Shown here piece by piece: positions 10,120-55,026 of a DNA stretch of 64,000 nt. The notes beneath the pieces were generated by a model that saw only the letters and a list, made by a program, of their open reading frames with translations, ran no database searches and had not been told where the DNA came from. Position 1 is the first letter of the stretch, and each line of letters starts with the position of its first letter. This DNA comes from Escherichia phage EC150: sequence record ON210137.1; one strand, given 5' to 3'. The translations under genes and the position numbers were made by a program.

Positions 10120-10157
10120 TTTACGGTCCTCGTTTTGTCGACAACCGTATTATAACC

Positions 10158-10499: not shown

Positions 10500-10694
10500 G
10501 ATAACCTCTTTAATTCCCTTCCCATATCGGGAAGGGTGAATATTATTTTACGCGAAAGAATAGGCGCGTGCCACACAGCGAGTCCCAACGGCCCTCACCA
10601 TCCCATATCGACCCAACACCAGCGGTGATTGGGCCAGCAGAATTGGCGGCATTGGCCCAGGCTAGACGTTTCAACTTCCAACTGCACCAACGAT

Positions 10695-10928
10695 TCACAT
10701 TTCATCTCCAGATTGCAAAACAAGTCCCGCATAGATGATTGCTAAAGCTAAAGGCGCACCACTTCCCGCCTCTCTGTTCTCTTTAATCTGAAGAGCATCC
10801 TTAAGGAATTGCAACTGAACGTTGAATTCATTTTCAATTCCAAGCACTCCAGACAATCCTTTTACAGAATCTGCATATGCCTTGTCTAGCACTTCTTTTG
10901 GTACTGTTAAAGTCAATTCATTTGCCAT
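10695..10928 (-). CDS. small protein with C-terminal hydrophobic segment
   Basis: ORF track; internal Met start chosen to limit overlap with upstream gene. Confidence 0.4.
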   Translation of the reverse strand: MANELTLTVPKEVLDKAYADSVKGLSGVLGIENEFNVQLQFLKDALQIKENREAGSGAPLALAIIYAGLVLQSGDEM

Positions 10929-11139
10929 TTTCTTTCCACTCCACGAATGTACTGCCACTTGTTTCTCTATTTAGCAGGTATCTGCCGCGCATTCCATGAA
11001 GGCTGAACTCAACCGTCGATGGATTAGATTTTGAAAGCCACATCACTTGACCGTCGAATGGTCCGCCGATGCATGTGTATTTGGCCTTTGGCTCACTCCT
11101 TTTGGGTCGCTTTGCCCGCTCTTTGATTGATAGTCTCAT
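10918..11139 (-). CDS. hypothetical small basic protein (73 aa)
   Basis: ORF track. Confidence 0.35.
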   Translation of the reverse strand: MRLSIKERAKRPKRSEPKAKYTCIGGPFDGQVMWLSKSNPSTVEFSLHGMRGRYLLNRETSGSTFVEWKENGK

Positions 11140-11354
11140 CAGTCTTCACCTTGAGATTCAAGACAAGTAAGGACAAGCCACGTCATCGGAAGAATCAAAA
11201 CCAGAGAAATAAGTGACCAAATGGACCAACACAAGATGACAGACTTGAATGTGTGAACGTCGCCAAACGTAGCAGTGAAACAAAATCCCATTACGAAAGC
11301 AATCGCTGTGGAGTGATTATCAATGGCTTTGATGGCGCGGTCGATGAGTTTCAT
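11139..11354 (-). CDS. small membrane protein with two predicted transmembrane helices (71 aa)
   Basis: ORF track; two hydrophobic stretches. Confidence 0.45.
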   Translation of the reverse strand: MKLIDRAIKAIDNHSTAIAFVMGFCFTATFGDVHTFKSVILCWSIWSLISLVLILPMTWLVLTCLESQGED

Positions 11355-11435
11355 ATTACCTCCGGTTTTGAGTTAATATGATTATAATGCAGAATTTCAG
11401 AAAGGCAAACTTTTTGTGAATTTAAATTAAAAAAA

Positions 11436-11456
11436 TGGCCAGAAATAATCTGGCCA
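11436..11456. other. palindromic hairpin TGGCCAG-AAATAAT-CTGGCCA flanked by A-tracts on both sides
   Basis: Read directly; T-tract follows on the minus strand; lies at the boundary between the minus-strand block and terL. Confidence 0.4.
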
Positions 11457-11502
11457 AAAAGATCACCCTTTATCCACTACTAAGCTGGAATCATAATTTT
11501 AC

Positions 11503-11532
11503 TTGATATAGCTGTCTCAAGCAAACTATAAT
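11503..11532 (+). promoter_or_regulatory. putative sigma70 promoter TTGATA-18-TATAAT upstream of terL
   Basis: Hexamers read directly; TATAAT ends 1 nt before ATG 11533, which argues for ATG 11566 as the real start. Confidence 0.4.
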
Positions 11533-11565
11533 ATGAATAAAATATTAACACATAATTGGAAAGTC

Positions 11566-12993
11566 ATGTACCAGTTGAATCCTGCTTTAAGAGAAGTCTG
11601 GAAGACGAAAGCGCGATACAAAGTCATATACGGCGGTCGTGCATCTTCCAAATCGCACGATGCCGCTGGTTTTGCTATTTATTTGGCGGCAAACTTCAAA
11701 TTAAAATTCCTTTGCGTTCGACAATTCCAGAACAAGATTTCTGAATCAGTATATACGCTATTAAAAGACAAAATAGAAATTTCTGATTTCAAAGACGAGT
11801 TCAACTTATTAAAGAACTCTATTGAACACAAAAGAACAAAATCTGAATTCTTATTTTACGGTATCGCACGCAACGTTGATGAAATCAAATCAACAGAAGG
11901 CGTTGATGTTCTTTGGCTTGAAGAAGCGCATGCGCTGACTGAAGAGCAGTGGGACATCATTGAGCCGACAATTCGTAAGGAAGGGTCCGAAATATGGATC
12001 ATATTTAACCCTGATGAAGAGGCTGATTTTGTCTACCAGAACTTTGTCATGCGACCGCCGAAGAATGCCATCGTTAAGAAGATTAACTGGCAAGACAACC
12101 CATTCTTGTCGCAAACAATGCTGGATGTTATCGCTGGCATGTATGAGCGCGACCCGAAAAAGGCAGAACACGTTTATGGCGGAGTACCGAAGACTGGCGG
12201 CGACAAGTCGGTAATCAACCGTGCATTCGTCAAGGCCGCGCTAAACCTCCACAAACACCCTACGCTGGGATGGAGCTTGTCAGGGTCTAACCGTATAGGC
12301 TTTGACGTGGCGGACGACGGCGACGACTTAAACGCCACAGCATTTGTCACTGGCAACGTATTGCGCGGCATCAAGACATGGGAAGGTCTGGAGGATGAAT
12401 TGCTTAAGTCCGCAAGCGGAGTCTGGAAAGACGCATTGACATTCGGCGCATCAATCACCTATGACGCCATCGGTGTTGGTGCATTTGCTGGTTCAAAATT
12501 TGATGAGCTTAATGAGTGTGCAATCCATGAAAATCCAACATTCCCAAGAATCGAATTTAATGCGTTCAACGCGCAAGGTGCTGTTGATGATCCTGATGAC
12601 GTTTTCCTTGAGTTACCACACGTTGAAATACTCAATAAAGACCATTTCGCAAACATAAAAGCGCAAAAATGGACTGAGATTGCCGAACGATTCAGAAAGA
12701 CATATGAGTATGCGACAGGGCAAGCCGTATATCCGACCGATGAGTTGATTTCCATCGACACAGACGGCATCCCAGAACTTGGTATTCCCGCTTGGTCTGC
12801 GGAAGAGATTGAGACGTTTCTTTTTGAGATGTCAGCGCCGCGCAAAGATACGTCTGTTCTTGGTAAGTTCAAAGTTGAATCGAAAAAAGATATGGCAAAG
12901 CGTGGAGTCAAATCGCCTAACAAAGCGGACGCAGCAATCATGGCATTGATGAAACCAATTGTTGCAGCATCCGGCTTCTTCTCTAACCTTTAA
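11566..12993 (+). CDS. terL: terminase large subunit
   Basis: Walker A-like YGGRASSKSHD near N-terminus, Walker B-like VLWLEEAH; start of morphogenesis module; GGAAAG Shine-Dalgarno before ATG 11566 (track start 11533 has none). Confidence 0.8.
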   Translation: MYQLNPALREVWKTKARYKVIYGGRASSKSHDAAGFAIYLAANFKLKFLCVRQFQNKISESVYTLLKDKIEISDFKDEFNLLKNSIEHKRTKSEFLFYGIARNVDEIKSTEGVDVLWLEEAHALTEEQWDIIEPTIRKEGSEIWIIFNPDEEADFVYQNFVMRPPKNAIVKKINWQDNPFLSQTMLDVIAGMYERDPKKAEHVYGGVPKTGGDKSVINRAFVKAALNLHKHPTLGWSLSGSNRIGFDVADDGDDLNATAFVTGNVLRGIKTWEGLEDELLKSASGVWKDALTFGASITYDAIGVGAFAGSKFDELNECAIHENPTFPRIEFNAFNAQGAVDDPDDVFLELPHVEILNKDHFANIKAQKWTEIAERFRKTYEYATGQAVYPTDELISIDTDGIPELGIPAWSAEEIETFLFEMSAPRKDTSVLGKFKVESKKDMAKRGVKSPNKADAAIMALMKPIVAASGFFSNL

Positions 12994-18540: not shown

Positions 18541-19953
18541 ATGCAAACGGCACGCGAAATTGACAAAAATGGATTCTTGACGATTGTGGGTTGTCCCATT
18601 TCGTCATTTGGCATTTTTGATTATTCTGCAGGTCAGGTTGGACTTGATGGTGATCCGAATCGCATCGTAAAAGTTTATCGCCCAGAGTCAGCGGTGAAAG
18701 ACCCCGAAGCGATAGATTCATTCAAAAATATCCCTTTCATCGACAATCACGAAATGCTTTCTGGATTCGAAGGTGATGAGGATAACACAGCACCCGAAGA
18801 GTATGGCGTTGATGGCGTTCTAACTGGCAATGTTTATTATGACAAGCCATGGATGCGCGGCGACCTTAAAGTTTTTAGCCGTCGTCTGAAGAAAGCCATC
18901 GATTCTGGAAAGGTTGACTTGTCTTTGGGCTATGACTGTGAATTCATCATACAGTCTGGAGAGTTTGACGGGCAGCCGTATGAAGTGGTACAGACAACTC
19001 TTCGCGGCAACCACATTGCTCTCGTGGACGTTGGTCGAGTACCAGGTGCACGGGTGCTGGATGGTCGTTGCTTTGACCATCTTTGTTTGACGACTGTAAC
19101 ACCATCCAACGAGGATTTAGACATGCCAAAACCGTTAAAAGGTAAAGCGCGTGATAATGCTGTTGAACAGCTGAAGTCGCTGATCCCTGCGCTCGAACAA
19201 TTTCTGAATGAAGAGAGCACCGAAGCTGCTCATCAGGACGAAGTTGAAGTGAAAGCAGAAGAGAAGGATTCAACCGAAGAACGTGAAGAAGTGATGGTTG
19301 ATCCAGAAGTCAAAGCAGAAGCTGAAGAGACTCCAGAAGGTGAAGAGAAGTTTGAAGTTGAAACTGAATCTCACGCTGGCGGCGAGCTTCCGCAACTGAT
19401 CAGCCAAATCGAAGCACTTATTGCAAAACTGAAAGGTGGCGCGGTAGGTGATGAAGAAGAAGTTGAAGCCGAAGTCAAAGACGAAGAAGTTGAAGTCAAG
19501 GCTGAAGATGTATCACCTTGCGACAAAGCTGAAGATGTGGTTAGCGGCCTGCAAAACAGCAACGTAAAGGGGGCTTCGGTCGAAAAAGATGACAAACCGA
19601 CAAAAGCGGCGAAAGCGTCGCCAGGTCCAGCAAAAGGGGAACACTCAATGGCATCTGATTCAGCAGTTGCTGCTTTCTACGCTGATTCTGCTCGTAAGAA
19701 TAGCCTCTACCAGCGCCTGTCTAAAGTTGTTGGTGCCTTTGATCATGCAACTATGGACTCCAAGTCCGTAGCGAAATATGGCGCTAAAAAGTTAGGCTTG
19801 AAGTGCGTTGATGGTGCTGAGTTTGACGTGGTGGATAATTATCTGCGCGGCGTTGAACACGGTCAAAAACAGCGTGTAGTCGCAAAACAAAAGGCTGCTG
19901 CGGATTCTGCAGCAACTGACGAAGCGTTTGAAGCTTGGTTGAAAGGGGAATAA
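18541..19953 (+). CDS. prohead protease / scaffolding fusion protein (putative)
   Basis: Globular N-terminal domain followed by long acidic Glu-rich coiled-coil region; immediately upstream of capsid genes; GAGGGTGG Shine-Dalgarno. Confidence 0.55.
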   Translation: MQTAREIDKNGFLTIVGCPISSFGIFDYSAGQVGLDGDPNRIVKVYRPESAVKDPEAIDSFKNIPFIDNHEMLSGFEGDEDNTAPEEYGVDGVLTGNVYYDKPWMRGDLKVFSRRLKKAIDSGKVDLSLGYDCEFIIQSGEFDGQPYEVVQTTLRGNHIALVDVGRVPGARVLDGRCFDHLCLTTVTPSNEDLDMPKPLKGKARDNAVEQLKSLIPALEQFLNEESTEAAHQDEVEVKAEEKDSTEEREEVMVDPEVKAEAEETPEGEEKFEVETESHAGGELPQLISQIEALIAKLKGGAVGDEEEVEAEVKDEEVEVKAEDVSPCDKAEDVVSGLQNSNVKGASVEKDDKPTKAAKASPGPAKGEHSMASDSAVAAFYADSARKNSLYQRLSKVVGAFDHATMDSKSVAKYGAKKLGLKCVDGAEFDVVDNYLRGVEHGQKQRVVAKQKAAADSAATDEAFEAWLKGE

Positions 19954-19955
19954 AC

Positions 19956-20573
19956 ATGACTTTCCAAACTAGTGTAGGCCGTCAATATACAACTGGCTTT
20001 CCTGGCGACATCGTTCGCGACGGCCCACAGCGTGGGAAGCCAGGCCGAATTGCCAACGCTAACGAAGGCGCAAACGTAAACGCCATCAGCCGTGTGTTCG
20101 GTTTTAAGACTGACGTATCCTTAATGGGTACTGGTCAAACCAAAACTTTGGGCGCGCAGGACTTTGAAGTTGAGCTGGGCGGCACTAACTACTACGGCAT
20201 CCTCGGCAATAGCAAGCGTTACGCGCTGTATGGCAACTCTACTGGCCCTTTGGGTGCCAGCATGGTTCTGCCTCAATATAGCGAAGGCGAGTTCTATGAT
20301 ATGTGCACGGGCCTCGTAGTTGAAGTATTCAACCCAAGCACCAGTCCGCAGACGCTTAACTATGGCGACCTGCTTGCTTATGTACCTAAAGGCATTTCCA
20401 GCGGTAACAACCCGAACAACTTGCCTATTGGTGCAATTATCGCCTATACTGGCTCATTGCCAACTGGCATGGTTGCCATCCCAGGCGGTATTGTGATTGA
20501 CCCGACGACTATTGCCCTTTCCGGCCCAAGCGTCCAGTCTTCCACTTATACCATTGTACAATTGACTCGTTAA
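19956..20573 (+). CDS. capsid-associated protein (putative decoration/minor capsid)
   Basis: Position between scaffold and major capsid genes; Gly-rich. Confidence 0.4.
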   Translation: MTFQTSVGRQYTTGFPGDIVRDGPQRGKPGRIANANEGANVNAISRVFGFKTDVSLMGTGQTKTLGAQDFEVELGGTNYYGILGNSKRYALYGNSTGPLGASMVLPQYSEGEFYDMCTGLVVEVFNPSTSPQTLNYGDLLAYVPKGISSGNNPNNLPIGAIIAYTGSLPTGMVAIPGGIVIDPTTIALSGPSVQSSTYTIVQLTR

Positions 20574-41060: not shown

Positions 41061-42038
41061 TTAAAAATACTCCATATCGGTAATATCACGGAAGCATTTA
41101 TACAAGGCAGAGCGCGGCACGTCAACGATGCCAAAGTTGAAGAATTTATATGTCAGATACTTGTTGCGATAATTCTCGCGATTCTCCCAAAGCATTTTTC
41201 TCTCTGCCATAGGCATTGAACCAGCGGATACGCGGAAAGGAATCATTTCACCTTTCTCATCAACATATTTTGGATTGACAACCACAAATGATCCAAGGTA
41301 TCCTTTTGCAACTAAGCCTTCAGCCTCTTTCGAACGCTTAGTGCGACCCAACTCATCAATGAATGCTTCGTTGTTATTCTCCATCATCTCAACGAAGTCT
41401 ATGATCAGACCTTCTTCATCGGTCCACGGCTTGTCCTTCCACACATCACGTGACTTTGGCGTCGCGCGGCCATGCTTGTATTTGCCCGTCCAAGACTTGC
41501 CATACAAGCCTTCATAGCCAAGCTGGTCTGCTTCGATTTGCATCGCCGCGTACTGTTCCATATTTTCGATGTTTCGATATTCGAGAGCGCGAAGGAATGG
41601 GCGTCGACCATGGTTGAGGAGGTGCTGATTGACTTCAGCAACTCTAGCGCGATAGTTTGCATAACGCTTTTCAAAAGGCAAATCAGGGTCGCTGAAGTCA
41701 TCAAACACCCACCATGTAAAGTTAGTGATTGCATCAGTGTTCATGCATGCAGTATAGGCCTGTTGCATGACGTTCTTGTCGTTCGGATTACCGTCAATTA
41801 GCTCTCCATCAAGTCCGTGAATCAATTCACCCAAGAATAGGAACTCTTTTTTGATTTGAATATTGCGCAGCGCCATGCCGGACGTGCCCATTGGCAAGTT
41901 GTCATACGCCATCGCGCGTATGCCATCGACCTTGAAGGATAATCCGCAAGGCAGCGGCACATCTTCGCCGCGCTCGATGATTTGTTTACGCTGACAGCCT
42001 TTCATTGGTTTTAATGCTTTGATTTCTCCTGCCATCAC
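41061..42038 (-). CDS. ATP-dependent DNA ligase (putative)
   Basis: Nucleotidyltransferase motif I KVDGIR (KxDGxR) with downstream motif III-like FLGELIHGLDGELI. Confidence 0.55.
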   Translation of the reverse strand: MMAGEIKALKPMKGCQRKQIIERGEDVPLPCGLSFKVDGIRAMAYDNLPMGTSGMALRNIQIKKEFLFLGELIHGLDGELIDGNPNDKNVMQQAYTACMNTDAITNFTWWVFDDFSDPDLPFEKRYANYRARVAEVNQHLLNHGRRPFLRALEYRNIENMEQYAAMQIEADQLGYEGLYGKSWTGKYKHGRATPKSRDVWKDKPWTDEEGLIIDFVEMMENNNEAFIDELGRTKRSKEAEGLVAKGYLGSFVVVNPKYVDEKGEMIPFRVSAGSMPMAERKMLWENRENYRNKYLTYKFFNFGIVDVPRSALYKCFRDITDMEYF

Positions 42039-42628
42039 TCAAACTCCTTATTCATCACTTGTTCCAGCGCATAGGCATAAGCCTGATCAGTCGATTTGAT
42101 AAACGTTCCGTTGTACATCACACCTTTACGGTCCTTGATGTCTTCATAGGCGGCTTGAGCGCAATCAGACAGTCGAAGTCCATAATCATGTGCTACGCCG
42201 GAAAGATAATCGACTGCGCCCATGATGGTGACATCAATATCCATACTTTGATTTTTAGCAATGGCGTCACCAAGCCGTCCAAGAGTCTTTGCCAAGCGAA
42301 GGATAAACGAGTGAGGGTGAGCGCCTTTGTCAGCGCAACCGCCGCCGTTGATGTCTTCGATTTTTGCACCGTTTTGCGCGGCAAGAATAGTTAACACAAC
42401 AAGGCAATCGCCGATGTCATCCTTGATTGCGGATTGTAAATCACAGATGGCCTGCTCTGTATATCCGATTTCAGGGTCAAAGAACACAAGGTCATGTAAT
42501 TGATCAACGTGGTCGGTCAACTCCCCAAACTCGCTAATAAGCTTCGGGTATTGGTCCTTAAGGTCGCAGCCTTGGATGATGTTACGTTCAGAAGCCCACT
42601 GGCGAATGTTTGCATAAATCTGGTTCAT
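42035..42628 (-). CDS. MazG-like nucleotide pyrophosphohydrolase (putative)
   Basis: All-alpha protein with EFGELTDHVDQLHD and DIGDCLVVL acidic motifs reminiscent of MazG EExxE/D boxes. Confidence 0.45.
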   Translation of the reverse strand: MNQIYANIRQWASERNIIQGCDLKDQYPKLISEFGELTDHVDQLHDLVFFDPEIGYTEQAICDLQSAIKDDIGDCLVVLTILAAQNGAKIEDINGGGCADKGAHPHSFILRLAKTLGRLGDAIAKNQSMDIDVTIMGAVDYLSGVAHDYGLRLSDCAQAAYEDIKDRKGVMYNGTFIKSTDQAYAYALEQVMNKEFE

Positions 42629-43200: not shown

Positions 43201-44061
43201 TTAAAACTCTTCTGCGTCGGTCGGAGTTTCATTGACAGGACCAGCGGCACCGCTTGCTTCTTCCTGCTTGCTGCGGTCAATGTTAACGTTGCCGCCAACT
43301 ACGTCGTTGTGGAATGCTTTGGCGACTTCGTACAAACCTTTGTCCTGCACCAGACCTTCCAGCTCAAACTTCAGAACTGACCATGTGTTGCCGTCTTTGG
43401 ACTGGGATGCAGTACCCATGCGAACGATGTTCATAAAGGTCGGCGGCGTTTTCAGACCCTGCGGAGTCTGAACTTTCTTCTGCTGCAGAGCGGTCATCAG
43501 CATGCGAGACGGCTTGATCATGGAAGAAGTCAGAGACAGCATTGCGCTACCAAATTCACCAGTTTCTTCGTTCAACAGAATCACAAAGTGGTTGCGTGTA
43601 TCTGCGTAGTAAGGCGATTTCTTCTCGTGCACCTTGCCGTTTTCGTCCGGCACGAATACCTTACCGTTGATCTCAACAGCGCGGCCTGCCGCGACTTCTG
43701 CATCAACGTGCTCTTTGGTGAATTCACCTTTAAAGCCTTTATCGTCGGACTCGCGACCGCCCCAAAGGATGAAGGTGCGTTTGAATGCGCAAGGGATGAT
43801 CTGCACGCCTTTCTTACCGTCATACAACTCACCAGTAACGGTGTTGTAAAGCATTCCGGCTTTTGCGCCAGGAACGTGTTTTGGATCATCTTCGTCGACC
43901 ATAGGAGACATCTTCTGCAGGACGACGATAAAAGGAATGGCATACGCATCGGCATCGGCACCTTCAAAACCAGCGCCAAAATCGGTCATGTCGACAAAAT
44001 CAGCCATAGCGGACATCTGGGTGTTTTTCACTGCAACTTCGGTAGTTTCTTTCTTAGACAT
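43201..44061 (-). CDS. putative single-stranded DNA-binding protein (acidic C-terminal tail ending in Phe)
   Basis: 286 aa; C-terminus ...ETPTDAEEF resembles acidic tails of SSB/T7 gp2.5-type proteins; replication module context. Confidence 0.35.
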   Translation of the reverse strand: MSKKETTEVAVKNTQMSAMADFVDMTDFGAGFEGADADAYAIPFIVVLQKMSPMVDEDDPKHVPGAKAGMLYNTVTGELYDGKKGVQIIPCAFKRTFILWGGRESDDKGFKGEFTKEHVDAEVAAGRAVEINGKVFVPDENGKVHEKKSPYYADTRNHFVILLNEETGEFGSAMLSLTSSMIKPSRMLMTALQQKKVQTPQGLKTPPTFMNIVRMGTASQSKDGNTWSVLKFELEGLVQDKGLYEVAKAFHNDVVGGNVNIDRSKQEEASGAAGPVNETPTDAEEF

Positions 44062-44120
44062 TTGATATTTTCCTATAGTATCAAGTTTCGTGGCAACCTG
44101 ATTTCAAGATAAAGGTTAAA

Positions 44121-44678
44121 TTACTTTTTGCTTTTAGGCAAGGTTATTTTAGCTTCTTTGTATTCAAAAACGCTAATATCTTCACTAACTGGATTGCCTG
44201 CTTCCAGCTGTTCTTTTACAAATGACTTCAGTGTAGCAGAATGAACGCCTTGTTTCAAGGTGGCTTCAACACCATCTTCACGCAGCGCGGCAACAATCTC
44301 TTGCGCCTGTTCGATTTCTTCGCGACCAAACTCAGCCGTGACGCTGGACTTGATCAGGCCGCCGTAACCGTTGTTTACAAGCCAATCGAAAACTTTTAAT
44401 TCGTTTTCTTTCTTGATTGAAGCGTTCACCTTGGACTCGACCTTGATTTTGGTCTTGTCCTCAAGCTTGATTTCGGACACGCCAAGCTCATCCATAACGC
44501 CAGGAAGCAAAACAGTTTTGATTTCACTGATACGCTGCTTTTGCATATCAGCTTCATCTTCAAGCTCTGTCAAAGCTTCTTGGCGTTCTGCCAGTTCAGA
44601 TACTAAGCGCGCAAGGCGCTCTTGAATGCTCTCAGGAGCAACCTGCGGCAAATCATCTTCCCAATTAATATTGCTCAT
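44121..44678 (-). CDS. hypothetical acidic coiled-coil protein (185 aa)
   Basis: ORF track. Confidence 0.5.
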   Translation of the reverse strand: MSNINWEDDLPQVAPESIQERLARLVSELAERQEALTELEDEADMQKQRISEIKTVLLPGVMDELGVSEIKLEDKTKIKVESKVNASIKKENELKVFDWLVNNGYGGLIKSSVTAEFGREEIEQAQEIVAALREDGVEATLKQGVHSATLKSFVKEQLEAGNPVSEDISVFEYKEAKITLPKSKK

Positions 44679-46536: not shown

Positions 46537-46955
46537 GACAATTCCTCTAAATACTTGATGATGTGGTGAATAGTTCCCTTCACGATTATCTCACGTTGAA
46601 CGTCTGCAATATTATAACGCTTTAATTCAATCGAAGGGTGGACTAAATAAAACATCTTCTCAGAATCGACTTTAAGCAAAACAAATGATGGGTATTTCCA
46701 ATCATTCCACGAAGAAAGAAAGCTGCACTGACCTTTCTCAAATGCATTTCTGAAAGGTGCAGTGGTGGCCCTTGCAGGCCACGATTCAAAGAACTTCATT
46801 TCAAGCCAAAAGCCGCGCCCTTTCCGGTTGGTGCCGATTACATCCGGCACACCATCACCCGTCATGGATTCGATTCTTTGAAGCTTCAATGCTGATTCTG
46901 AATGCTTCTTCAGGGGCACAAAAATGTATTTTTGTTCACGGTTGTTTGTTGCCAT
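46533..46955 (-). CDS. VRR-NUC domain nuclease (putative)
   Basis: GDGVPDVIG...GRGFWLEMK pattern resembles VRR-NUC; adjacent to SNF2 helicase as often seen; track start 47006 is an alternative. Confidence 0.5.
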   Translation of the reverse strand: MATNNREQKYIFVPLKKHSESALKLQRIESMTGDGVPDVIGTNRKGRGFWLEMKFFESWPARATTAPFRNAFEKGQCSFLSSWNDWKYPSFVLLKVDSEKMFYLVHPSIELKRYNIADVQREIIVKGTIHHIIKYLEELS

Positions 46956-49839
46956 CTGGATACACCTGTTTGATAACGTCGACGATGAACATATCAATGC
47001 CTTCAAGCTTGCGGCCTTTCATCAGGAAGAATGCACCGTTCCCGACGTACTCTGCAATGTACTTCCCGTATTTCTGGAACTTCTCTGGGCGAATCCTGAA
47101 GCGCATTGGCGAGTCGGTCGAATCGTCCTTGCACATAAGGTCGATGAATTGAGTTTCAAGCTTGTTTCCATACTGGTCAAATTCTGCGTAGCGGCCATCG
47201 GCCTGAAGACCCTTTTTAAGCTTGCCGTGCTTTGTATAAATGCCGCGCTCAAGACGTTTACGGATGCGTGTTGCTTCGTTCTCGTCTGCCAGCACTTTCT
47301 TGGTCAGCTTGCCGATTACTATTGCACGCTCATCATCGCCTACTTCCTTCATCTGGCGTATTGAAGCGCCGGAAGTGACGCCAATCAGATATGGGTCATT
47401 ATATGCCCAGCCGAACTTGGTGTGCATCTCTGTAAGGTCGCCGTATTTAACTTCAGCATTGGCCAATGCATCCTTCTGCTTTTGCGTTAAGGTTCCGGCT
47501 TCACGTGCTTCGATGTACTTCATCGCCTTCACCATTCCGTACCCTTTAGCGTTCATGATGCCGCCGATTAGCTTTCCGTTAGCGATGGTCCAGTTCATTG
47601 AAGAGTGATCAGGGTCGATTGGCACATAATCCACGCCTTCCTTCGCAAGTTCACGTAATATCGCAATCGTCTGGTCTTCGTCCTTAGCAGCGCGTAAGCA
47701 AGCAGCGGCAAATTCCAACGGGTAGTGTCGTTTAAGCCACAAGGTCCAGTAGGTTACGACCGCGTATGACACGGAGTGTGACTTGTTAAAGCCCCATGAC
47801 CCGAACGTCGCCATCGCCTGCCAAAGCTTTCTTGCATCCGCTTCCGGTACGCCGTTATTTATTGCGCCTGCAACGAAGTCTTCGCCAAGCTTGTTAAAGT
47901 ATTCCTCGCCCTTACGACCTGACATCGCCTTACGCACGGCTGATGTTTTCGCCCAGTCGAATGAACCAATCTCTTTAACCACGGCCATGATTTGCTCTTG
48001 GTAAAGAAACACGCCGTAAGTCTCTTTTAAGTACGGCTCAAGCTGCGGCACGTCGTACTCAATCGGCGCACGCCCTGCCGCGCGTTCAATGTATTTCTGG
48101 GCCATACCGGATGACAACGGGCCAGGTCGACCAAGTGCTGTCAGGTTATCGATTTTGTTGAAGTTGTCAACGTGCACAAAGTTGGTTACTGAGCGCACAG
48201 CGTCACCTTCAAACTGAAAGATTCCTGACATCTTGTTTTCGTTAAGGATATCAAGGACGCTTTGGTCATCAAGCTTGATTCCGTATAGCGTTTCAGCATC
48301 TATCACGCCAGTATCAGAAATGATTCCGAGGGTGCGAAGACCCAACGCATCAAGCTTCAAAAGGTTAAGGTATTCGCTGTCAGGCTTATCAATTTGCGCA
48401 ATCCCTTCCGCCGTTACCGTACAGTAATCAGAGATTGGGTCATTACACACGATGATTCCCGCTGCGTGAACGCCAGTGTGGGAAGGGTGAATCTCAAGGT
48501 CACCCATGCATCGCGCGGCGTCAGGATATTTCGCCACGAACTCTTGGCCCGTGGTCGTTGTTGCAAAAGTATCCTCCAGGCCGTGACCATAACGGGCGTC
48601 ACCGGATGAGTATTCAAGCAATGCGTTTTTAATGTTGGCCGTTTCGTGATATCCAATGTTGAACTTCTTACCAACCTGAGCCATTACTGAGTTGGCCTTA
48701 AGCGTGTTGATGTTGCCAAGCTTTGCAACGTTCATTTCGCCATATTTTTCTTTAAGGTAATCAAACACCATATAACGTTTGGTGTCCTCAAAGTCAATAT
48801 CAATATCAGGGAGGTCGGCGCGGCTTACGTCGATGAATCGGGCAAATAGCAGCTTATACGGGATTGGGTCAACTTCCGTGATGCCGAGGCAATAACAAAC
48901 CAGTGAACCAGCCGATGAGCCGCGTGCAGGACCGACAAGCATTTTTGTTTTTGCGAATCGTACAAGGTCCGCTACTACCAGAAAGTATGAGTCGAAATCT
49001 TTCAACTGAATCTGGTGAATTTCTTCGTTGAAGCGGTCCTCATATTCCTGAGTCCATTCTTTGATGTGACCTGCTTTGAGACGGTACTCCATCCCCTCAC
49101 GCGCAAGCTTTACCATATCACCAGCAAGGTGAATAATCGGTGCCTTGCGTAATTTCAGGTCAAGTCCGACTATGCCGTTTGCTATGTCAACAGCATTGGC
49201 CGTTGCCTGATTCAGCTCATCTTCCGTCAAGATGCCTTTAAGCTGTTTGCGCAAGTCTTCCGCGTCAACGATGCAGTGCGGCTTGACCGTGTCGCGCACT
49301 TCCCAAGCATAAGCAAAGTCAACGTGCTCAGGTGAAGGCATGTGGTTGTATCCGGTTAAAACCAGCGGCCTTCCGTTGCTGCGGTGAGCCAACACCTGGC
49401 GCTTAGCCAAAAGGAACGATGATGGGTTGACGTCTATATAATCGTAGTCCTCTGGCCGCAGCAGCTCAACGGCACCGCCACAGAATTTAACGACGCCATC
49501 AAGCGCACCGAACTCTTCACGGGTAAGCCCACCGCGCTGCGTTGAAAGTGTTGTAGCGTTGTAAAAAGATTTTAAGTCAAGGGACAGTATCCAAGCCTTC
49601 GGTTTGAATCCCTTTTTCGGGTCCGCATCAGGGTCGATGATTGGAATCTCCATCCCAAACATAGGCTTAATATCATTTTTCTGGCATTCCTTTTCCCAGC
49701 GGACGTGACCCCATGTGTTGTTATCAACTAATGCCGCGACTTCGCAGCCCAACTCTTTGAGCCGTGCTATAATTTCAGGATGCCGTCCATAAACTTCTTT
49801 GAACGTGTAACCGCTGCGAACTCTCAATTGTGGAAACAT
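46936..49839 (-). CDS. dnaE: DNA polymerase III alpha subunit-like replicative polymerase (DnaE family) with N-terminal PHP domain
   Basis: 967 aa; N-terminal PHP-like region; polymerase core motifs; adjacent DnaQ-like exonuclease. Confidence 0.8.
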   Translation of the reverse strand: MFPQLRVRSGYTFKEVYGRHPEIIARLKELGCEVAALVDNNTWGHVRWEKECQKNDIKPMFGMEIPIIDPDADPKKGFKPKAWILSLDLKSFYNATTLSTQRGGLTREEFGALDGVVKFCGGAVELLRPEDYDYIDVNPSSFLLAKRQVLAHRSNGRPLVLTGYNHMPSPEHVDFAYAWEVRDTVKPHCIVDAEDLRKQLKGILTEDELNQATANAVDIANGIVGLDLKLRKAPIIHLAGDMVKLAREGMEYRLKAGHIKEWTQEYEDRFNEEIHQIQLKDFDSYFLVVADLVRFAKTKMLVGPARGSSAGSLVCYCLGITEVDPIPYKLLFARFIDVSRADLPDIDIDFEDTKRYMVFDYLKEKYGEMNVAKLGNINTLKANSVMAQVGKKFNIGYHETANIKNALLEYSSGDARYGHGLEDTFATTTTGQEFVAKYPDAARCMGDLEIHPSHTGVHAAGIIVCNDPISDYCTVTAEGIAQIDKPDSEYLNLLKLDALGLRTLGIISDTGVIDAETLYGIKLDDQSVLDILNENKMSGIFQFEGDAVRSVTNFVHVDNFNKIDNLTALGRPGPLSSGMAQKYIERAAGRAPIEYDVPQLEPYLKETYGVFLYQEQIMAVVKEIGSFDWAKTSAVRKAMSGRKGEEYFNKLGEDFVAGAINNGVPEADARKLWQAMATFGSWGFNKSHSVSYAVVTYWTLWLKRHYPLEFAAACLRAAKDEDQTIAILRELAKEGVDYVPIDPDHSSMNWTIANGKLIGGIMNAKGYGMVKAMKYIEAREAGTLTQKQKDALANAEVKYGDLTEMHTKFGWAYNDPYLIGVTSGASIRQMKEVGDDERAIVIGKLTKKVLADENEATRIRKRLERGIYTKHGKLKKGLQADGRYAEFDQYGNKLETQFIDLMCKDDSTDSPMRFRIRPEKFQKYGKYIAEYVGNGAFFLMKGRKLEGIDMFIVDVIKQVYPDGNKQP

Positions 49840-50381
49840 TATTTACTCCAGATGTCATATACGCCAATTTGTTGGCAGACTTTGTGCAGTAATATTACGT
49901 CGTCTAATGCACGGTGCTTCTGTTCATATTTTCCGAAATATAATTCATACAGCTCTTGAAGCTTAACTCTTCGGCCAAAAATAGGCAAGGTTTGCTCAAC
50001 TGTACATATGTTTATTTCTGGAAAATTAACATCATCAAGCGTAAGTCCTTCGCGCTGTAGTGCATAATCAAGAATGTTTTTATCGAACGCATGGTTGTGC
50101 GCGATAGTTGCATCAGTCTTCTTGAAGATTTCTTTTAGCTGCGGGACGAAATTGATGAACGGTGGATTGCACTCAAGGTCTTCATTAGTTAATCCGGTAA
50201 TCTTTGTGATGATTTCTTCAATCACAATTTCAGGATTAATTATGAATTCAAACGTTTCAAGAATCTCTTTGCCGTCTGTCAACAGACCTGCAAATTCAAT
50301 AGGACGCGGCTGCATCCCAAGCGGCGCTTTCGGGTGCACGGTCAATCCGGTTGTTTCGAAGTCATAAGGGAGAAATAACAC
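49839..50381 (-). CDS. DnaQ-like 3'-5' exonuclease (proofreading subunit)
   Basis: Exo I motif YDFETTG near N-terminus; Exo III-like HRALDDV near C-terminus; 1-nt overlap with dnaE start. Confidence 0.8.
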   Translation of the reverse strand: MLFLPYDFETTGLTVHPKAPLGMQPRPIEFAGLLTDGKEILETFEFIINPEIVIEEIITKITGLTNEDLECNPPFINFVPQLKEIFKKTDATIAHNHAFDKNILDYALQREGLTLDDVNFPEINICTVEQTLPIFGRRVKLQELYELYFGKYEQKHRALDDVILLHKVCQQIGVYDIWSK

Positions 50382-50435: not shown

Positions 50436-50987
50436 TTATACGGTGTACGGAGTACCGTCTTGATTCAAGCGCACGATAAACTTAAGGTCGACGCCAATAA
50501 TATCACGCGTGTCAAAGATCACATAGTTGTAGCGACGTTGACCAGCAATGTTAGGATTGGTGTGGGAGTCGGTGATGACTTCCTGCGCAACCTGAATATG
50601 TTCGTTCTTAAAGAACTCACGCCATTCGGCAAGTTCTGCGGCAGTCACGTGCATGCCAAGGTGGCTAACCTGATTATCGTGCGCATCGATGTATTCAATG
50701 TTTTCGTTAATCCAGTTGCAGCCCTTTGTGTAGTCAAGGATTTCAAGCTCAAGAGGCTTACCAGCGCTGCCATCAGTTCCGTTTCCAGCTTGATAGTTGA
50801 AGCGTAAATCAGCTTCGTTGGTGCAATCGCCGCGCTGGCCTTTAAAGTCATCAGATTCAAATACGCGACCAGTAGCAACAACGTGATCATGGAACCATTC
50901 TGTCAGGCCGATTTTAGCCAGGAAATTCTGTGCGCGCTGAGCACCTGGGATTGACAGGGCGATTTGTTCAATTTTAAAATGTGGCAT
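50436..50987 (-). CDS. hypothetical protein, possibly VOC/glyoxalase-like
   Basis: ORF track; weak resemblance only. Confidence 0.45.
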   Translation of the reverse strand: MPHFKIEQIALSIPGAQRAQNFLAKIGLTEWFHDHVVATGRVFESDDFKGQRGDCTNEADLRFNYQAGNGTDGSAGKPLELEILDYTKGCNWINENIEYIDAHDNQVSHLGMHVTAAELAEWREFFKNEHIQVAQEVITDSHTNPNIAGQRRYNYVIFDTRDIIGVDLKFIVRLNQDGTPYTV

Positions 50988-51083
50988 TTTGTTTCCTTAA
51001 TTAAATATTATTGATTAATTACTGTGTTATCTTCGTCCTGTTTCTTTTCAGGAGCGGGTGTGACAACTTCAAATGTTCGTGAT

Positions 51084-51767
51084 TTATTTCCCAAATGGAA
51101 TATCAGTACCAGACATAAAGCGCCATGCGCCCGTAATTAAGATATGGCGAATGAAGTCAGCAATTACTTGCGGCTCAGTCTCCAATCCATTCATCAGTGC
51201 CTTTTTCTGGTATTCAGCAGCATACTCAGGAGTCCAGCCGCGAGTCGCGCAAACAGCATCTTCAATCTGTTTGGACATGCCAGTACCACGTAGCTTGTTA
51301 GGACTAATAGAGAATACCGTGATGCCGTATTTAGGCGTAAGCTCGTGAGCCATCTGCTTGCTAATCATAAGCGCAGCAGCCTTGGATGCATTATAACACA
51401 AGCTGGACGTCATAGGAATGTGCGCAGCGTTAGAAACGATATTGATCACAAAACCTTTGTTGTCGATAAGACTTTTCAGCGCGGCTTGAGTCGTGTTAAC
51501 GAAAGAGAATGCGTTGGTGTGCATAACGCGATTGAACTCTTCGTAGTTAACATCTTCGAACCAGTTGTTGGAGTTGACGCCAGCGCAGTTGATCAAGCCT
51601 TCTACATCATATGGGCTTAAAATTTCTTTCATCTGTTTAGCGTCGCGGACGTCATATCCGTATGCTGAATCGATGCCAAGCACGTTATGACCGTAAGCGC
51701 CAAGGGTGTCAAAAATAGATTTACCAAGACCGGAATTGGAACCTGTTACAACAATTACTTTTTTCAT
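51084..51767 (-). CDS. short-chain dehydrogenase/reductase (SDR) family oxidoreductase
   Basis: N-terminal cofactor-binding VTGSNSGLGKSI (TGxxxGxG) and catalytic YNASKAA (YxxxK). Confidence 0.8.
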   Translation of the reverse strand: MKKVIVVTGSNSGLGKSIFDTLGAYGHNVLGIDSAYGYDVRDAKQMKEILSPYDVEGLINCAGVNSNNWFEDVNYEEFNRVMHTNAFSFVNTTQAALKSLIDNKGFVINIVSNAAHIPMTSSLCYNASKAAALMISKQMAHELTPKYGITVFSISPNKLRGTGMSKQIEDAVCATRGWTPEYAAEYQKKALMNGLETEPQVIADFIRHILITGAWRFMSGTDIPFGK

Positions 51768-51832: not shown

Positions 51833-52705
51833 CTATTTATTGAAATTAATATTATGGGTGTTGACAAGACGTTCACACATGGCGCTGTAAACACCATCGT
51901 CGTGTATTGAGTCTTCGTGCTTCAGGCCGCTGATTGCGAAGCGTGTAAGCTTGACAATCTTAAGCTCGAACAGATGCCACATGTGGTAGTCTTCCGGCGT
52001 TTTCAACGTTACGCCATTAGGGAAAAGCACCTGCATAACCTGGCCTACCATCACAGCGTTATCGCCATAGACAGCGTTGCGCTCACGAAAGGTTGCTGCC
52101 ATTGCATCAAGAATATCGGCGGCAGTTGCCGGAGATTGTTCAACTTCCACAGCCTTAGTCTCTTCTTGCCCTGTTGCGCTTGGATCAATTGCTAATTGTT
52201 GCACCACTTCACCTGCCTTGCAAAGATTAAATGTAAAAGCGATTTTATTTTGAGCAACGGAATTATAATACAATGCTTCATCTTGCATCCGCGCGAGTAC
52301 GTCTTGTCGGTCGTCGAATACGTTGATGATTCGATAATCGCCGTGGCGCAATGCGTGCGATAGCCATGCAGATTTCATAATAGTTGATGGACGTTTGTCG
52401 CCATAGTCTCTCATCTTGATTGTAAATTCATCAAAAGGAAAAACATTGTCCAGACGTTCAAAAGTCACTTGTCTGTATTTTTCTGGCCTTGCAGTCCAAT
52501 ATTCAACCGCCTCACCGCGAAGAGATGCCGACTCTACTGCTGATGCAATGTGAGGATAGAACTGATCATAACCAATACCGCTATGATAGTCATCATAGTC
52601 TGACAACGGACCTGCCACCTTGATGCGGTCTAAGCGCCAACGGTCATCAAACAGCGTTCCGTCAAGGTCGAATACGTTTAAGATTTCGCTGTTTTTAATG
52701 CTCAT
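51833..52705 (-). CDS. HAD-superfamily phosphatase-like protein with C-terminal domain of unknown function
   Basis: HAD motif I VFDLDGTLFDD near N-terminus. Confidence 0.5.
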   Translation of the reverse strand: MSIKNSEILNVFDLDGTLFDDRWRLDRIKVAGPLSDYDDYHSGIGYDQFYPHIASAVESASLRGEAVEYWTARPEKYRQVTFERLDNVFPFDEFTIKMRDYGDKRPSTIMKSAWLSHALRHGDYRIINVFDDRQDVLARMQDEALYYNSVAQNKIAFTFNLCKAGEVVQQLAIDPSATGQEETKAVEVEQSPATAADILDAMAATFRERNAVYGDNAVMVGQVMQVLFPNGVTLKTPEDYHMWHLFELKIVKLTRFAISGLKHEDSIHDDGVYSAMCERLVNTHNINFNK

Positions 52706-53505
52706 CCTTTTGATACTCCATCTTTAGCAACTGGATTGTTGGTGATTGGCATCGCACTCCAAAACTGGATGCGCAACTCTTCTTGCTGTGACGTGGTATC
52801 CATCCAATCACGATACCAAGGGCAATGGGCTTTGCCATGACGAGGAAACGCGCATTTACCCATACCGATGCATTGCGGCTGTAATAATGGATTTGCCCAC
52901 GGGTGCACCTTGAGGACTTCCGCAACCATTGCGCGGAATACTTCTTGATACTCGCCTTGAGTGCGCGTGCACAAGCGGTTTGACGCCATCTGCTGCAGCG
53001 TGCGCAAGTTGAACTTTGCCATGATATGCGTTTGCATATTAGAAGGCAACACGGCACGTGCATCTTGAATCTCTGCGCCAGCCGCGCGAAGCTCTTGATA
53101 CAAAGCATCGATAGTCGCCATCGCATCATCCCACTTCTCTGCCAGTTCAGCGGCCTTCTCGTCATGACGAGTCCATCCCTTTGGATCATCCTCTGGGTAA
53201 GTGAATTTAGCAGGACGAATCGCATCAAATGCAGACGACTCCTGAGCGCGGCTGGTGCGTTCTTGATATGCGCCTGTGCGTGTGCGTACCATCTGATGGG
53301 TCATGTTCTTTGATACATCTGTGATATCAAAGATATAGTCCACAAAGTCAAAAGGCGACTTGATTGTATCAAGCATGTAGCGCCAATGCTCTTGCTTCTC
53401 TGATTCCGTCATCTCAGAGACAGGCTTACCAGTCATGCGCGTGTTCTTTGTTTCCAGCAAAAGGTCAAGTGCATCTTGGGTGTATCGAATTAATTCAACT
53501 TTCAT
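52702..53505 (-). CDS. flavin-dependent thymidylate synthase (ThyX)-like protein with divergent signature motif
   Basis: HQMVRTRTGAYQERTSR resembles ThyX HxxVRHRxxSxSQxSxRY block but with RTR in place of RHR; C-terminal NLRTL...TQGEYQEVFRAM also ThyX-like. Confidence 0.55.
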   Translation of the reverse strand: MKVELIRYTQDALDLLLETKNTRMTGKPVSEMTESEKQEHWRYMLDTIKSPFDFVDYIFDITDVSKNMTHQMVRTRTGAYQERTSRAQESSAFDAIRPAKFTYPEDDPKGWTRHDEKAAELAEKWDDAMATIDALYQELRAAGAEIQDARAVLPSNMQTHIMAKFNLRTLQQMASNRLCTRTQGEYQEVFRAMVAEVLKVHPWANPLLQPQCIGMGKCAFPRHGKAHCPWYRDWMDTTSQQEELRIQFWSAMPITNNPVAKDGVSKG

Positions 53506-53518
53506 TTTAATTATCCTA

Positions 53519-53965
53519 TTAACGGTAATTCACTAGTTGCTGATCACCAGAGAAGGTGCAATGATAAACGAATTGTGCGTTATAAAGCAACTGAAAACTT
53601 TTCTTTGGTTCATTATTAGAACTCATCGATGTAAAGATTTCTGCACCAGAACGGTTTTCACCAATCAGATTAATAAAGCCGCCAGTTGAACGAGGCTGGA
53701 CGAAAGTGAAACGTTGCATCCACGGAGTACGGTTGGCACCTTTCCCTGTGAATCCCTGAATCTGAATATTCAGACCTTCTTGCTCGTTCACACCGATGTA
53801 AGTGGTAATCTTCGCACCAGTCGTTGCTGCGGTCTTACCGTCCATCGCTTCGCAATCGTAAACAGCGATTGAATCGGAAGTACGGATGGCAGCTTCAGTC
53901 GCTTCCATATACATGGTGCCGAGAATAGCAGTTGCGGCAAGCGCGATTCCAGTGATTCGTTTCAT
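53519..53965 (-). CDS. exported protein with N-terminal signal peptide (148 aa)
   Basis: N-terminal MKRITGIALAATAILGTMYMEATEAA hydrophobic signal-like segment. Confidence 0.5.
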   Translation of the reverse strand: MKRITGIALAATAILGTMYMEATEAAIRTSDSIAVYDCEAMDGKTAATTGAKITTYIGVNEQEGLNIQIQGFTGKGANRTPWMQRFTFVQPRSTGGFINLIGENRSGAEIFTSMSSNNEPKKSFQLLYNAQFVYHCTFSGDQQLVNYR

Positions 53966-54030: not shown

Positions 54031-55026
54031 TTATTTATTAGCAATATAAGCAAATTTTTGATAGTTATTTGCTTTGATGAGTTTTTCAACTTCAACAAGG
54101 TCATGAGCGACGTCATCAAGCAAAATGTTGCGCCAGGTAGCAAATCGACCGACACTAAACACGTTCAAATCCATGGTCAGCTGCAGGAGTAGGGCGTGTC
54201 GCAAGTCTTTCGGAATGTCGACAATCTTGCCATATTTCTGGTCGACCTTTTCAACTTCTTCAAGAGCAATGTCACTCCATGAGAGGCCAAAAGCTGTCAA
54301 CACTTCGTCGACTTCTGCGCGCAGCTTGATGTCACGGTAACGAGTGATGCCGCCAGCGGCTTCAACTGCAGCTTCACTCACGCTGACCAAAGGAATTGTT
54401 TCAATGATCAGTGTGTCGCCAGTGATTGATGCGCGGTAAGTTCTGACGGAGTAGTCAGGGAAGTAAATTGTTTGATACAAATCACACTTACGTTTAATCT
54501 TAAAGCGGTAAACGCGAATGTTTGCTTTATCAAATGAGAAATCAAGCTTTTGATCAATCCCAGCCAGCTTCATCATGACTGGCAGCGGCGACGTGTTGAT
54601 GATTGGCGTCTCGCTATAGCCGCAAAGAGTATCAACCGGAGTATTAAAGAATATGCGGTCACCCAGTTTGTCGACAAGCTGATCATAAAAGTCATCAGGC
54701 GCAATATAACGTGTTGCAGTCTTAAGCTTCATGATTGAACGGCTGCCAAACTGATTGGTGACCTTCATGGAATACATATTGGCAAGGTTGATTGGGCAAT
54801 GGTCGTGGTAGTAGTTGCCGCGAAAATACACAGCCTTGTCAACTGTCACGGCCTTGAAAGGGATTCCGGTAATACGGCTTACTTCTTCGCCGCGAAAGCG
54901 TAGAAGCGCCTTGTGCTGTTGCGCTCGTTCCCCTGCTTCGTACACAATAGAGTTCGGGAAGTGACACGCTGTGATAAGTCCTGCCAGTCCGCCGCCGATA
55001 ATCATTACAGGTTGTTTCATGTTCAT
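54031..55026 (-). CDS. FAD/NAD(P)-binding Rossmann-fold oxidoreductase-like protein
   Basis: N-terminal dinucleotide-binding motif VMIIGGGLAGLITA (GxGxxG). Confidence 0.55.
   Translation of the reverse strand: MNMKQPVMIIGGGLAGLITACHFPNSIVYEAGERAQQHKALLRFRGEEVSRITGIPFKAVTVDKAVYFRGNYYHDHCPINLANMYSMKVTNQFGSRSIMKLKTATRYIAPDDFYDQLVDKLGDRIFFNTPVDTLCGYSETPIINTSPLPVMMKLAGIDQKLDFSFDKANIRVYRFKIKRKCDLYQTIYFPDYSVRTYRASITGDTLIIETIPLVSVSEAAVEAAGGITRYRDIKLRAEVDEVLTAFGLSWSDIALEEVEKVDQKYGKIVDIPKDLRHALLLQLTMDLNVFSVGRFATWRNILLDDVAHDLVEVEKLIKANNYQKFAYIANK

Follow-up and report, generated by a model that had tools for sequence, protein, structure and literature searches.

The closest described relatives of the gene discussed here are the flavin-dependent thymidylate synthases of the ThyX family, homotetramers whose active sites lie between subunits. 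In solved ThyX structures, an Arg-His-Arg (RHR) motif touches the phosphates and the ribityl chain of flavin adenine dinucleotide (FAD), and the first Arg of the motif touches the isoalloxazine ring and deoxyuridine monophosphate (dUMP) (PMC6514825). Other residues act in the mechanism of the Thermotoga maritima enzyme. His53 stacks on folate and on the reduced flavin, FADH- (PMC11940539). Tyr91 keeps solvent off C5 and N5 (PMC6514825); it is the proposed general acid and lid of the active site, and its mutation makes flavin oxidation about 1000-fold slower (PMC11940539; PMC6514825). An atypical member of this family is encoded on the minus strand at positions 52702..53505 of a stretch of 64,000 nucleotides from Escherichia phage EC150 (ON210137.1), called the window below.

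The window is about 96% identical to coliphages of the genus Wifcevirus, a group of E. coli myophages (WFH, ECML-117, FEC19, Mansfield and BASEL Bas98-101), whose copies of the gene already carry the annotation 'thymidylate synthase'. The gene is an ATG-to-stop open reading frame (ORF) of 267 amino acids. An AGGA ribosome-binding site lies upstream of its ATG, and its stop overlaps the ATG of the next gene (ATGA); the gene is translationally coupled and sits inside the replication module. An earlier note on this DNA, made from the letters alone, had taken the protein for a ThyX homologue and quoted two peptides, which are found in the ORF as HQMVRTRTGAYQERTSR (residues 70-86) and NLRTL...TQGEYQEVFRAM (residues 166-193).

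Profile and structure comparisons bear out this assignment. Pfam Thy1 (PF02511) matches the ORF with 107.1 bits, against a gathering cutoff of 24.8, and is covered from position 2 to position 191 of its 191. PHROG 85, 'thymidylate synthase', matches at 4.8e-38. An AlphaFold2 (AF2) model made with 134 homologues as input has a predicted local distance difference test score (pLDDT) of 92.3 and a predicted template modelling score (pTM) of 0.86. Its top Foldseek match in the PDB is T. maritima ThyX (E 1.5e-10, target-normalised TM-score 0.77), followed by T. thermophilus Thy1 and then by PolB, a methylase of uridine monophosphate (UMP) and dUMP (4p5b, TM 0.63-0.71). Identity to the solved structures is only about 20% in these matches. 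The modelled protein has the ThyX fold, with the Thy1 domain in residues 1-205 and a Cys-containing C-terminal extension in residues 206-267. The ORF is a genuine, full-length but atypical Thy1/ThyX homologue.

Judging from conservation, the ORF appears to encode a folded, selected and catalytically competent member of a virus-specific ThyX branch. The most likely reading of its product is that of an ordinary synthase of deoxythymidine monophosphate (dTMP), to which a probability of roughly one half can be given. The evidence comes from the active-site residues, from their variation in the wider family and from the distribution of the gene and its neighbours.

Residues were mapped by phmmer against T. 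maritima ThyX and by an independent MAFFT alignment with canonical ThyX. In both, QWFRHRIASYNELSGRY aligns to QMVRTRTGAYQERTSRA without gaps. The motif RTR-x7-T (R74-T75-R76-x7-T84-S85-R86) stands where Thermotoga ThyX has RHR-x7-SGR, and the canonical signature is not matched. The earlier note had reported that the signature histidine is replaced by threonine and that the serine position is altered. Both observations hold: His79 corresponds to Thr75 and Ser88 to Thr84. Because both alignments are ungapped from Gln75 to Arg90, the canonical residues are not hidden in a shifted register, and this explanation of the motif is rejected. Gly89 corresponds to Ser85, while Gln75, Arg78, Arg80 and Arg90 are kept as Gln71, Arg74, Arg76 and Arg86. 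Changes that the earlier note did not mention are those of His53 to Ile48, His59 to Phe54 and Tyr91 to Ala87. The loop following Arg86 is also unlike that of canonical ThyX in the MAFFT alignment.

The rest of the binding site is kept. The equivalents of T. maritima Arg147, Asn163, Arg165, Arg174 and Glu182 are all conserved. The predicted dUMP-binding set (Gln75, Arg78, Arg90, Arg147 and Arg174 in T. maritima) consists of Gln71, Arg74, Arg86, Arg150 and Arg177. The predicted FAD-binding set keeps Arg74, Arg76, Asn166 and Arg168 (T. maritima Arg78, Arg80, Asn163 and Arg165), with His79 as Thr.

The 120 closest homologues, which are 54-100% identical, come from Wifcevirus, Serratia Myosmarvirus, and phages of Pantoea, Erwinia, Xanthomonas and Burkholderia. 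The whole predicted dUMP-binding set is invariant among them, as are the equivalents of Arg80, Arg165 and Glu182. The replacements are equally constant: Thr75, Ile48, Phe54 and Ala87 each occur in 120 of 120. Position 84 is Thr in 108 homologues, Ser in 10 and Ala in 2. The invariance of Thr75 and the other replacements across the clade argues for a selected active-site configuration rather than noise. The change from Ser to Thr at position 84 is conservative. The S88A variant of T. maritima ThyX reportedly keeps its activity, as Koehn et al. are said to have found in 2009; a crystal structure of this variant exists (3g4a).

The family extends well beyond these homologues. When 1.84 billion cluster representatives were searched exhaustively, 1620 relatives were found; a profile search gave at least 3854 clusters. 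Among 366 alignable members, the residue at the position of His79 is Thr in 299, His in 32, Gln in 13, Ser in 12 and Asn in 7, all of which are polar and able to hydrogen-bond. The position of Ser88 is Ala in 22 members. In the MAFFT alignment the sequences form a graded series. It begins with canonical proteins that have His53, His59, His79, Ser88 and Tyr91. Intermediates have Ile or Val at position 53, Phe59, His79 and Ser88, without Tyr at 91, and the RTR type comes next.

Because position 79 is labile within the same subfamily, the change from His to Thr alone is a poor sign of new chemistry. Thr75 is one late step in a subfamily whose deeper hallmark is the loss of His53, His59 and Tyr91. 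The earlier note had also suggested that altered active-site residues could mean a changed product, and this suggestion survives in part. The active site is indeed altered, and further than the note had seen, since His53 and Tyr91 are lost as well. The signature itself carries little of the argument: position 79 varies, the replacement of Ser is conservative, and RHR-bearing relatives occur in the same gene pair, described below.

Four Cys residues of the protein (C179, C212, C218 and C228) are conserved in all 120 homologues, and across the family they are mostly all present or all absent. The motif to which they belong, RLC...C-x5-C-x(2-23)-C, is also found in canonical RHR-type ThyX sequences. 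The four Cys are thus ancestral in canonical ThyX and are rejected as a novelty of the RTR clade. None of the solved ThyX structures searched covers the motif. Its pattern suggests an uncharacterised metal site (Zn or Fe-S) in much of the ThyX family.

The RTR subtype is essentially virus-only. A set of 185,579 genomes, one per species of bacteria or archaea, was scanned with the patterns [FMC]THQ[LFM]VRTR and [EQ]DAR[GA][IVL]LP[TS][NA]. The RTR pattern was confirmed at 14 loci, all on contigs of 1.6-59 kb from metagenome-assembled genomes (MAGs). No contig with a metagenomic member of the subtype is longer than about 70 kb. The genus Pbunavirus, F8 and 14-1 included, has an orthologue that is 48-49% identical and carries the same motif. 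A subtype of this kind, found only in viruses, lacking three hallmark residues and tied to an uncharacterised flavoprotein, is not described as such in the searchable literature.

Other unusual ThyX proteins were met in the same searches. A large viral clade has RQR in the signature and proteins of 330-630 amino acids, with an N-terminal extension of about 200-350 amino acids that matches no family (10001-11578 in the metagenomic loci L023 and L024, and neighbours). At these two loci the gene lies near genes for Pol III alpha, a short-chain dehydrogenase/reductase (SDR; adh_short) and an HD_3/YfbR-like, 5'-nucleotidase-like protein. No flavoprotein homologue was detected near RQR-type ThyX in the flanks sampled. 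The idea that these long proteins are the ThyX of Chlamydia, and hence a validated non-His enzyme, was rejected, as their relatives lie on phage-sized contigs of 55-66 kb. No Pfam family matches the N-terminal extensions, and they resemble none of the proteins of the window. Rosetta-stone fusions of ThyX to dUTPase, deoxycytidine monophosphate (dCMP) deaminase or dihydrofolate reductase were looked for, and none was found. One relative (P0167) is a ThyX interrupted by an intein.

The ThyX-like gene has a constant partner. At 54031..55026 on the minus strand lies the gene for an uncharacterised flavoprotein-like protein of 331 amino acids with an N-terminal GxGxxG dinucleotide-binding motif (PHROG 4828, labelled as unknown function). 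A GxGxxG protein of 302-371 amino acids is encoded upstream of ThyX in every sampled RTR locus with enough upstream flank, and its gene lies next to ThyX or is parted from it by one to a few small ORFs. The sample comprised JG024, F8, 14-1, the MAG loci of the scan (all but one with enough flank) and four metagenomic clusters (L017-L022, L030, L031). The homologues are 29-44% identical to the protein of the window. Two RHR-bearing intermediates (L032 and L033), one of them in a virus with a family-B polymerase, also have a flavoprotein homologue upstream. Thus, the pairing follows the type of ThyX that lacks His53 and Tyr91, and not the replacement of His79 by Thr. In a protein of 277 amino acids (P0210), the N-terminal part matches the flavoprotein profile (E 3e-20) and the C-terminal part matches ThyX, the mark of a natural fusion or else of a chimera made in gene calling.

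The nature of the partner can be narrowed down only a little. A profile of its family matches the PDB solely in the Rossmann motif, the protein has no Pfam match, GLF included, and its single-sequence AF2 model has a pLDDT of 32. The GenBank note of phage Mansfield calls it a UDP-galactopyranose mutase (UGM), on the ground that HHpred matched it to 1I8T, an enzyme of that kind. The present analysis does not confirm that it is a UGM: when the profile of its family was compared with E. coli Glf, hhalign aligned 29 N-terminal columns only, with a probability of 5%.

The remaining neighbours, all on the minus strand, form a recurrent cassette. Between the flavoprotein and ThyX genes, an ORF of 148 amino acids (53519..53965) has a hydrophobic, signal-like N-terminus and no family match; no homologue of it was detected in the other sampled loci. 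Downstream of ThyX, the usual order is a HAD_PNKP phosphatase and/or a DUF6378-like domain, an optional SDR and VOC-like pair, a 3'-5' exonuclease and Pol III alpha. In the window, the gene whose ATG overlaps the ThyX stop (51833..52705) encodes a HAD_PNKP-type phosphatase domain (residues 11-142) fused to a DUF6378-like C-terminal domain. The DUF6378 match is weak and was obtained with the F8 orthologue. In two metagenomic loci, L030 (8233-9060) and L031 (8892-9188), the DUF6378-like domain is a separate small gene, and L031 has no HAD domain.

Next come a classical SDR of 227 amino acids (51084..51767) and a VOC-like protein of 183 amino acids (50436..50987). The latter has no Pfam or PDB match, and its glyoxalase/VOC annotation is taken from the GenBank note of phage Mansfield. 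The SDR recurs beside ThyX in L004, L006, L013, L014 and L031. In four of these unrelated metagenomic phages (L004, L006, L013 and L031) the SDR and VOC-like pair (50436-51767 in the window) is inserted as a unit in the cassette between ThyX and the polymerase; in L014 only the SDR is seen, and the pair is not in Pbunavirus. The downstream end is formed by a 3'-5' exonuclease of the RNase_T or epsilon-like type (49839..50381) and a Pol III alpha-type replicative DNA polymerase (46936..49839). Such recurrence in unrelated phage contigs, with flavoprotein, HAD phosphatase, SDR and VOC-like genes in synteny, supports the tie to a surrounding enzyme cluster that the earlier note had proposed.

Two further loci of the window have counterparts in the relatives. 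Genes like those for gp34 (43201-44061) and gp33/DUF7307 (44121-44678) of Pam3 occupy 43201..44678. Such genes are often placed just upstream of the flavoprotein gene, as they are in small relatives. A MazG-like nucleotide pyrophosphohydrolase (42035..42628) also occurs in Pbunavirus. The non-structural genes that F8 and the window have in common are few: ThyX, the flavoprotein, HAD/DUF6378, MazG, the Pam3 gp33/34-like genes, gp066-like, gp076/077-like and replication proteins. Searches of the PDB and NCBIfam with the VOC-like, HAD/DUF6378, 148-amino-acid, 281-amino-acid and Pam3-like proteins gave no match. In L033, two genes downstream of the RHR-bearing virus-type ThyX, a gene at 9667-10557 has a faint Glyco_tranf_2_3 match (glycosyltransferase family 2, GT2) and may encode a glycosyltransferase.

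What such a cassette might do is made more pressing by the DNA chemistry of Pbunavirus. A 2025 preprint reports new nucleosides derived from thymidine, of 362 and 390 Da, in the virion DNA of two Pbunaviruses, F8 and 14-1 (PMC12191111). They take the place of about one quarter of T, seemingly where G follows; one is described as derived from a tetrose sugar alcohol and the other as a cyclised derivative of an aldopentose (PMC12191111). Pbunaviruses are without the genes earlier implicated in genome modification, and the biosynthetic genes were not identified (PMC12191111).

T followed by G makes up 27.2% of all T in F8, 27.7% in 14-1 and 26.5% in the window, which matches the reported one quarter. 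Both masses are those that result when 5-hydroxymethyl-deoxyuridine (258) is joined, with loss of water, to a tetritol (122) or a pentose (150), an arithmetic fit that isomers of the same formula would share. To our knowledge, every known thymidine hypermodification pathway starts with a ThyA-type enzyme. No ThyA homologue was found in the window, in F8 or in 14-1; E. coli ThyA gave only chance tblastn matches against the window (E >= 1.4). The ORF at 52702-53505 matches Thy1 and not ThyA (PF00303).

The difference between the two adducts does not come from the gene pair. ThyX is 94% identical between F8 and 14-1 and the flavoprotein 97%, and their divergence was rejected as the cause. The most divergent gene of the two phages is gp070, at 56% identity and with CxxC motifs (18894-20090 in F8, locus L027; gp71 at 18997-20301 in 14-1, locus L029). 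14-1 also has an extra gene annotated as a methyltransferase (L028, 6707-7207). Neither gp070 nor this gene has a detectable counterpart in the Wifcevirus window.

Restriction may be touched by such chemistry. The window has 15 sites for EcoRI, 8 for EcoRV, 6 for EcoKI and 76 for EcoP1, so complete avoidance of sites is not the reason for the restriction resistance of Wifcevirus. EcoP1_I alone is reported to act on the phage. Counted on both strands against a mononucleotide shuffle, EcoRV (GATATC) has 16 occurrences against about 37 expected, EcoP1 (AGACC) 76 against about 114 and NdeI 34 against about 36. HindIII is over-represented, with 96 against about 36. Literature on restriction digests of Wifcevirus or Pbunavirus from before 2025 gave nothing decisive.

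As an ordinary dTMP synthase, the protein would bind FAD and dUMP at the subunit interface, and its reduced flavin would carry a one-carbon unit onto C5 of dUMP. The resulting dTMP would boost the thymidylate supply of a fast-replicating virulent phage whose T is mostly ordinary. Thr75, or the Ser, Asn, Gln or His of relatives, could stand in for the His79 of other ThyX proteins in hydrogen-bonding the phosphate or ribityl of FAD, and Thr84 would take over the role of Ser88. Because His53, which stacks folate and NADPH (reduced nicotinamide adenine dinucleotide phosphate), and the lid residue Tyr91 are lost, flavin reduction or one-carbon delivery would be handled differently, perhaps with the aid of the adjacent flavoprotein. 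The invariance of the arginines suggests that catalysis is retained, and the retention of those that recognise uracil points to dUMP rather than dCMP as the substrate. About three quarters of T in Pbunavirus DNA is ordinary (PMC12191111), so dTMP is needed there. The Pbunavirus adduct is specific to TG, which argues for a post-replicative step on DNA rather than a step at the nucleotide level.

Several facts weigh against ordinary dTMP synthesis. His53 and Tyr91, both mechanistically important in T. maritima ThyX, are missing, with the solvent-shielding Tyr91 replaced by Ala. The TIGR02170 thyX equivalog model scores the ORF at 83.1 bits, slightly under its curated cutoff of 87.9. Neither the obligatory pairing with an uncharacterised flavoprotein nor the recurrent SDR and VOC-like neighbours would be expected for a plain thymidylate synthase. 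Among the 185,579 species genomes no cellular organism was seen to depend on an RTR-type ThyX, and the searchable literature contains no biochemical assay of any member of the subtype. Finally, the sister genus Pbunavirus, with the same cassette, has hypermodified T without a known pathway or a ThyA homologue.

The last of these facts is the main attraction of another explanation, that a neofunctionalised ThyX and its flavoprotein make a C5-substituted dUMP other than dTMP, as the committed step of thymine hypermodification. This is a possibility to be held tentatively. The product might be 5-hydroxymethyl-dUMP, formed when water captures the exocyclic-methylene intermediate after loss of the Tyr lid, or else a larger adduct of the C5-alkyl or alkoxymethyl kind. 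It would then fall to the HAD/DUF6378, SDR and VOC-like neighbours to process the nucleotide or its sugar part. Changed products such as hydroxymethylation, which the earlier note had raised, are now better motivated, given the loss of His53 and Tyr91, the lack of ThyA and the hypermodified T of Pbunavirus. F8 and 14-1, whose 48%-identical orthologue lies in the same cassette, carry the 362 and 390 Da nucleosides, and both adduct masses fit 5-hydroxymethyl-deoxyuridine joined to a tetritol or a pentose. These phages derivatise the methyl position of thymine with no ThyA-type hydroxymethylase or other one-carbon transferase. The subtype is confined to viruses and has an invariant flavoprotein partner; the SDR and VOC-like genes vary as tailoring genes do, and the faint GT2 match lies nearby in L033. 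Wifcevirus resists restriction without explanation although its EcoRI and EcoRV sites are present. There are also precedents: the ThyX paralogue PolB changed its substrate (PMC5954106; 4p5b), and ThyA homologues make 5-hydroxy-dCMP (PMC13326640).

Against this, the modification is TG-specific and leaves all but about 27% of T ordinary, which fits an enzyme acting on DNA better than a modified pool of deoxynucleoside triphosphates. The adducts of F8 and 14-1 differ despite the near identity of their ThyX and flavoprotein. In the window, neither a kinase for a modified deoxynucleoside monophosphate nor a DNA glycosyltransferase can be recognised, and the known modification is that of Pbunavirus DNA. 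Vertical inheritance in the replication module could by itself account for the synteny and for the confinement to viruses. A bolder form of the idea, only slightly less likely, is that virus-type ThyX and flavoprotein make up a new two-flavoenzyme system, with which thousands of uncultured phages, as well as Pbunavirus and Wifcevirus, start the hypermodification of thymine. Here the exocyclic-methylene intermediate would be released or trapped to give 5-hydroxymethyl-dUMP or a sugar or polyol adduct; dUMP might even be reductively alkylated with a sugar aldehyde in place of formaldehyde.

Methylation of a different nucleotide, such as dCMP, UMP or cytidine monophosphate, would follow the example of PolB in polyoxin biosynthesis. 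The Foldseek matches to PolB (4p5b, TM 0.63-0.71) and the different loop after Arg86 are compatible with it. It is nevertheless very improbable, as the arginines that read uracil O4/N3 and phosphate (T. maritima Arg90, Arg174, Arg147 and Arg78) are invariant, no acidic residue has been gained that could read the cytosine amino group, and the modification in the sister genus is on T and not on C. A catalytically dead relic with a structural or regulatory role, for instance in binding dUMP or FAD or as a replisome scaffold, has the slimmest chance. The protein lacks three residues that matter in T. maritima ThyX and scores below the equivalog cutoff, but all the arginines that bind substrate and cofactor are invariant across thousands of diverged sequences. 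The replacements Ile48, Phe54, Thr75 and Ala87 are themselves invariant, which suggests a defined alternative active site and not decay.

The gene carries an annotation already, and its fold family is known. Its interest lies in its coincidence with an open question of Pbunavirus DNA chemistry, for which it is a candidate modified-thymine enzyme. In phage therapy against Pseudomonas aeruginosa, Pbunaviruses rank with the phages used most; Wifceviruses are coliphages that replicate fast. The set of atypical ThyX, flavoprotein, HAD/DUF6378 and optional SDR and VOC-like genes, common to Pbunavirus, Wifcevirus and thousands of uncultured phages, is an obvious place to seek the genes for synthesis of the Pbunavirus thymidines. 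If the protein is an ordinary thymidylate synthase, then His53, His79 and Tyr91, hallmarks in work on ThyX mechanism and drug design, are dispensable, and the contribution of the flavoprotein becomes the question. If it makes another product, the ThyX fold would have a new reaction and DNA hypermodification a new entry, with consequences for the evasion of restriction, for phage therapy and for making modified DNA with enzymes. A true two-flavoenzyme system would be the first to reach hypermodified thymine by way of flavin and without ThyA, and would account for the restriction resistance of Wifcevirus as well as for the nucleosides of 362 and 390 Da in F8 and 14-1.

Compared with known systems, the protein stands nearest to ThyX itself (T. 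maritima TM0449, M. tuberculosis, H. pylori and PBCV-1; PF02511, TIGR02170). They have in common the fold, the arginines for dUMP and FAD, Gln75 and Glu182, and the RLC...C-x5-C...C motif of the phage protein is common to many canonical sequences. The phage protein differs in having RTR instead of RHR, Thr instead of Ser88, and Ile, Phe and Ala for His53, His59 and Tyr91. Its subtype is found only in viruses, is adjoined by a flavoprotein gene, has about 20% identity to the solved structures and falls under the TIGR02170 cutoff.

PolB (Streptomyces cacaoi / S. viridochromogenes; 4p5a/4p5b), the UMP/dUMP C5-methylase, is an example of a ThyX fold recruited outside bulk dTMP supply (PMC5954106). 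Unlike the phage protein, it is bacterial and lies in a secondary-metabolite cluster, and it still methylates. The similarity of the phage protein to PolB is no higher than to ordinary ThyX, and there is no evidence in it of any PolB-specific feature. The partner protein resembles UGM and amine-oxidase-type flavoproteins in its N-terminal GxGxxG FAD/NAD-binding beta-alpha-beta motif, but it aligns to E. coli Glf over 29 residues only and lacks a Pfam GLF match.

The dUMP hydroxymethylases of the ThyA family (SPO1 gp29 and the enzymes of ViI, M6 and phiW-14) play the very role that the hypermodification explanation proposes, namely a C5 one-carbon transfer that starts thymine hypermodification (PMC5889632; PMC8989533). 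Their fold and mechanism are unrelated to those of the phage protein, with a Cys nucleophile, folate as the reductant and no flavin. These systems come with a 5-hydroxymethyl-deoxyuridine DNA kinase, of which none is recognisable in the window.

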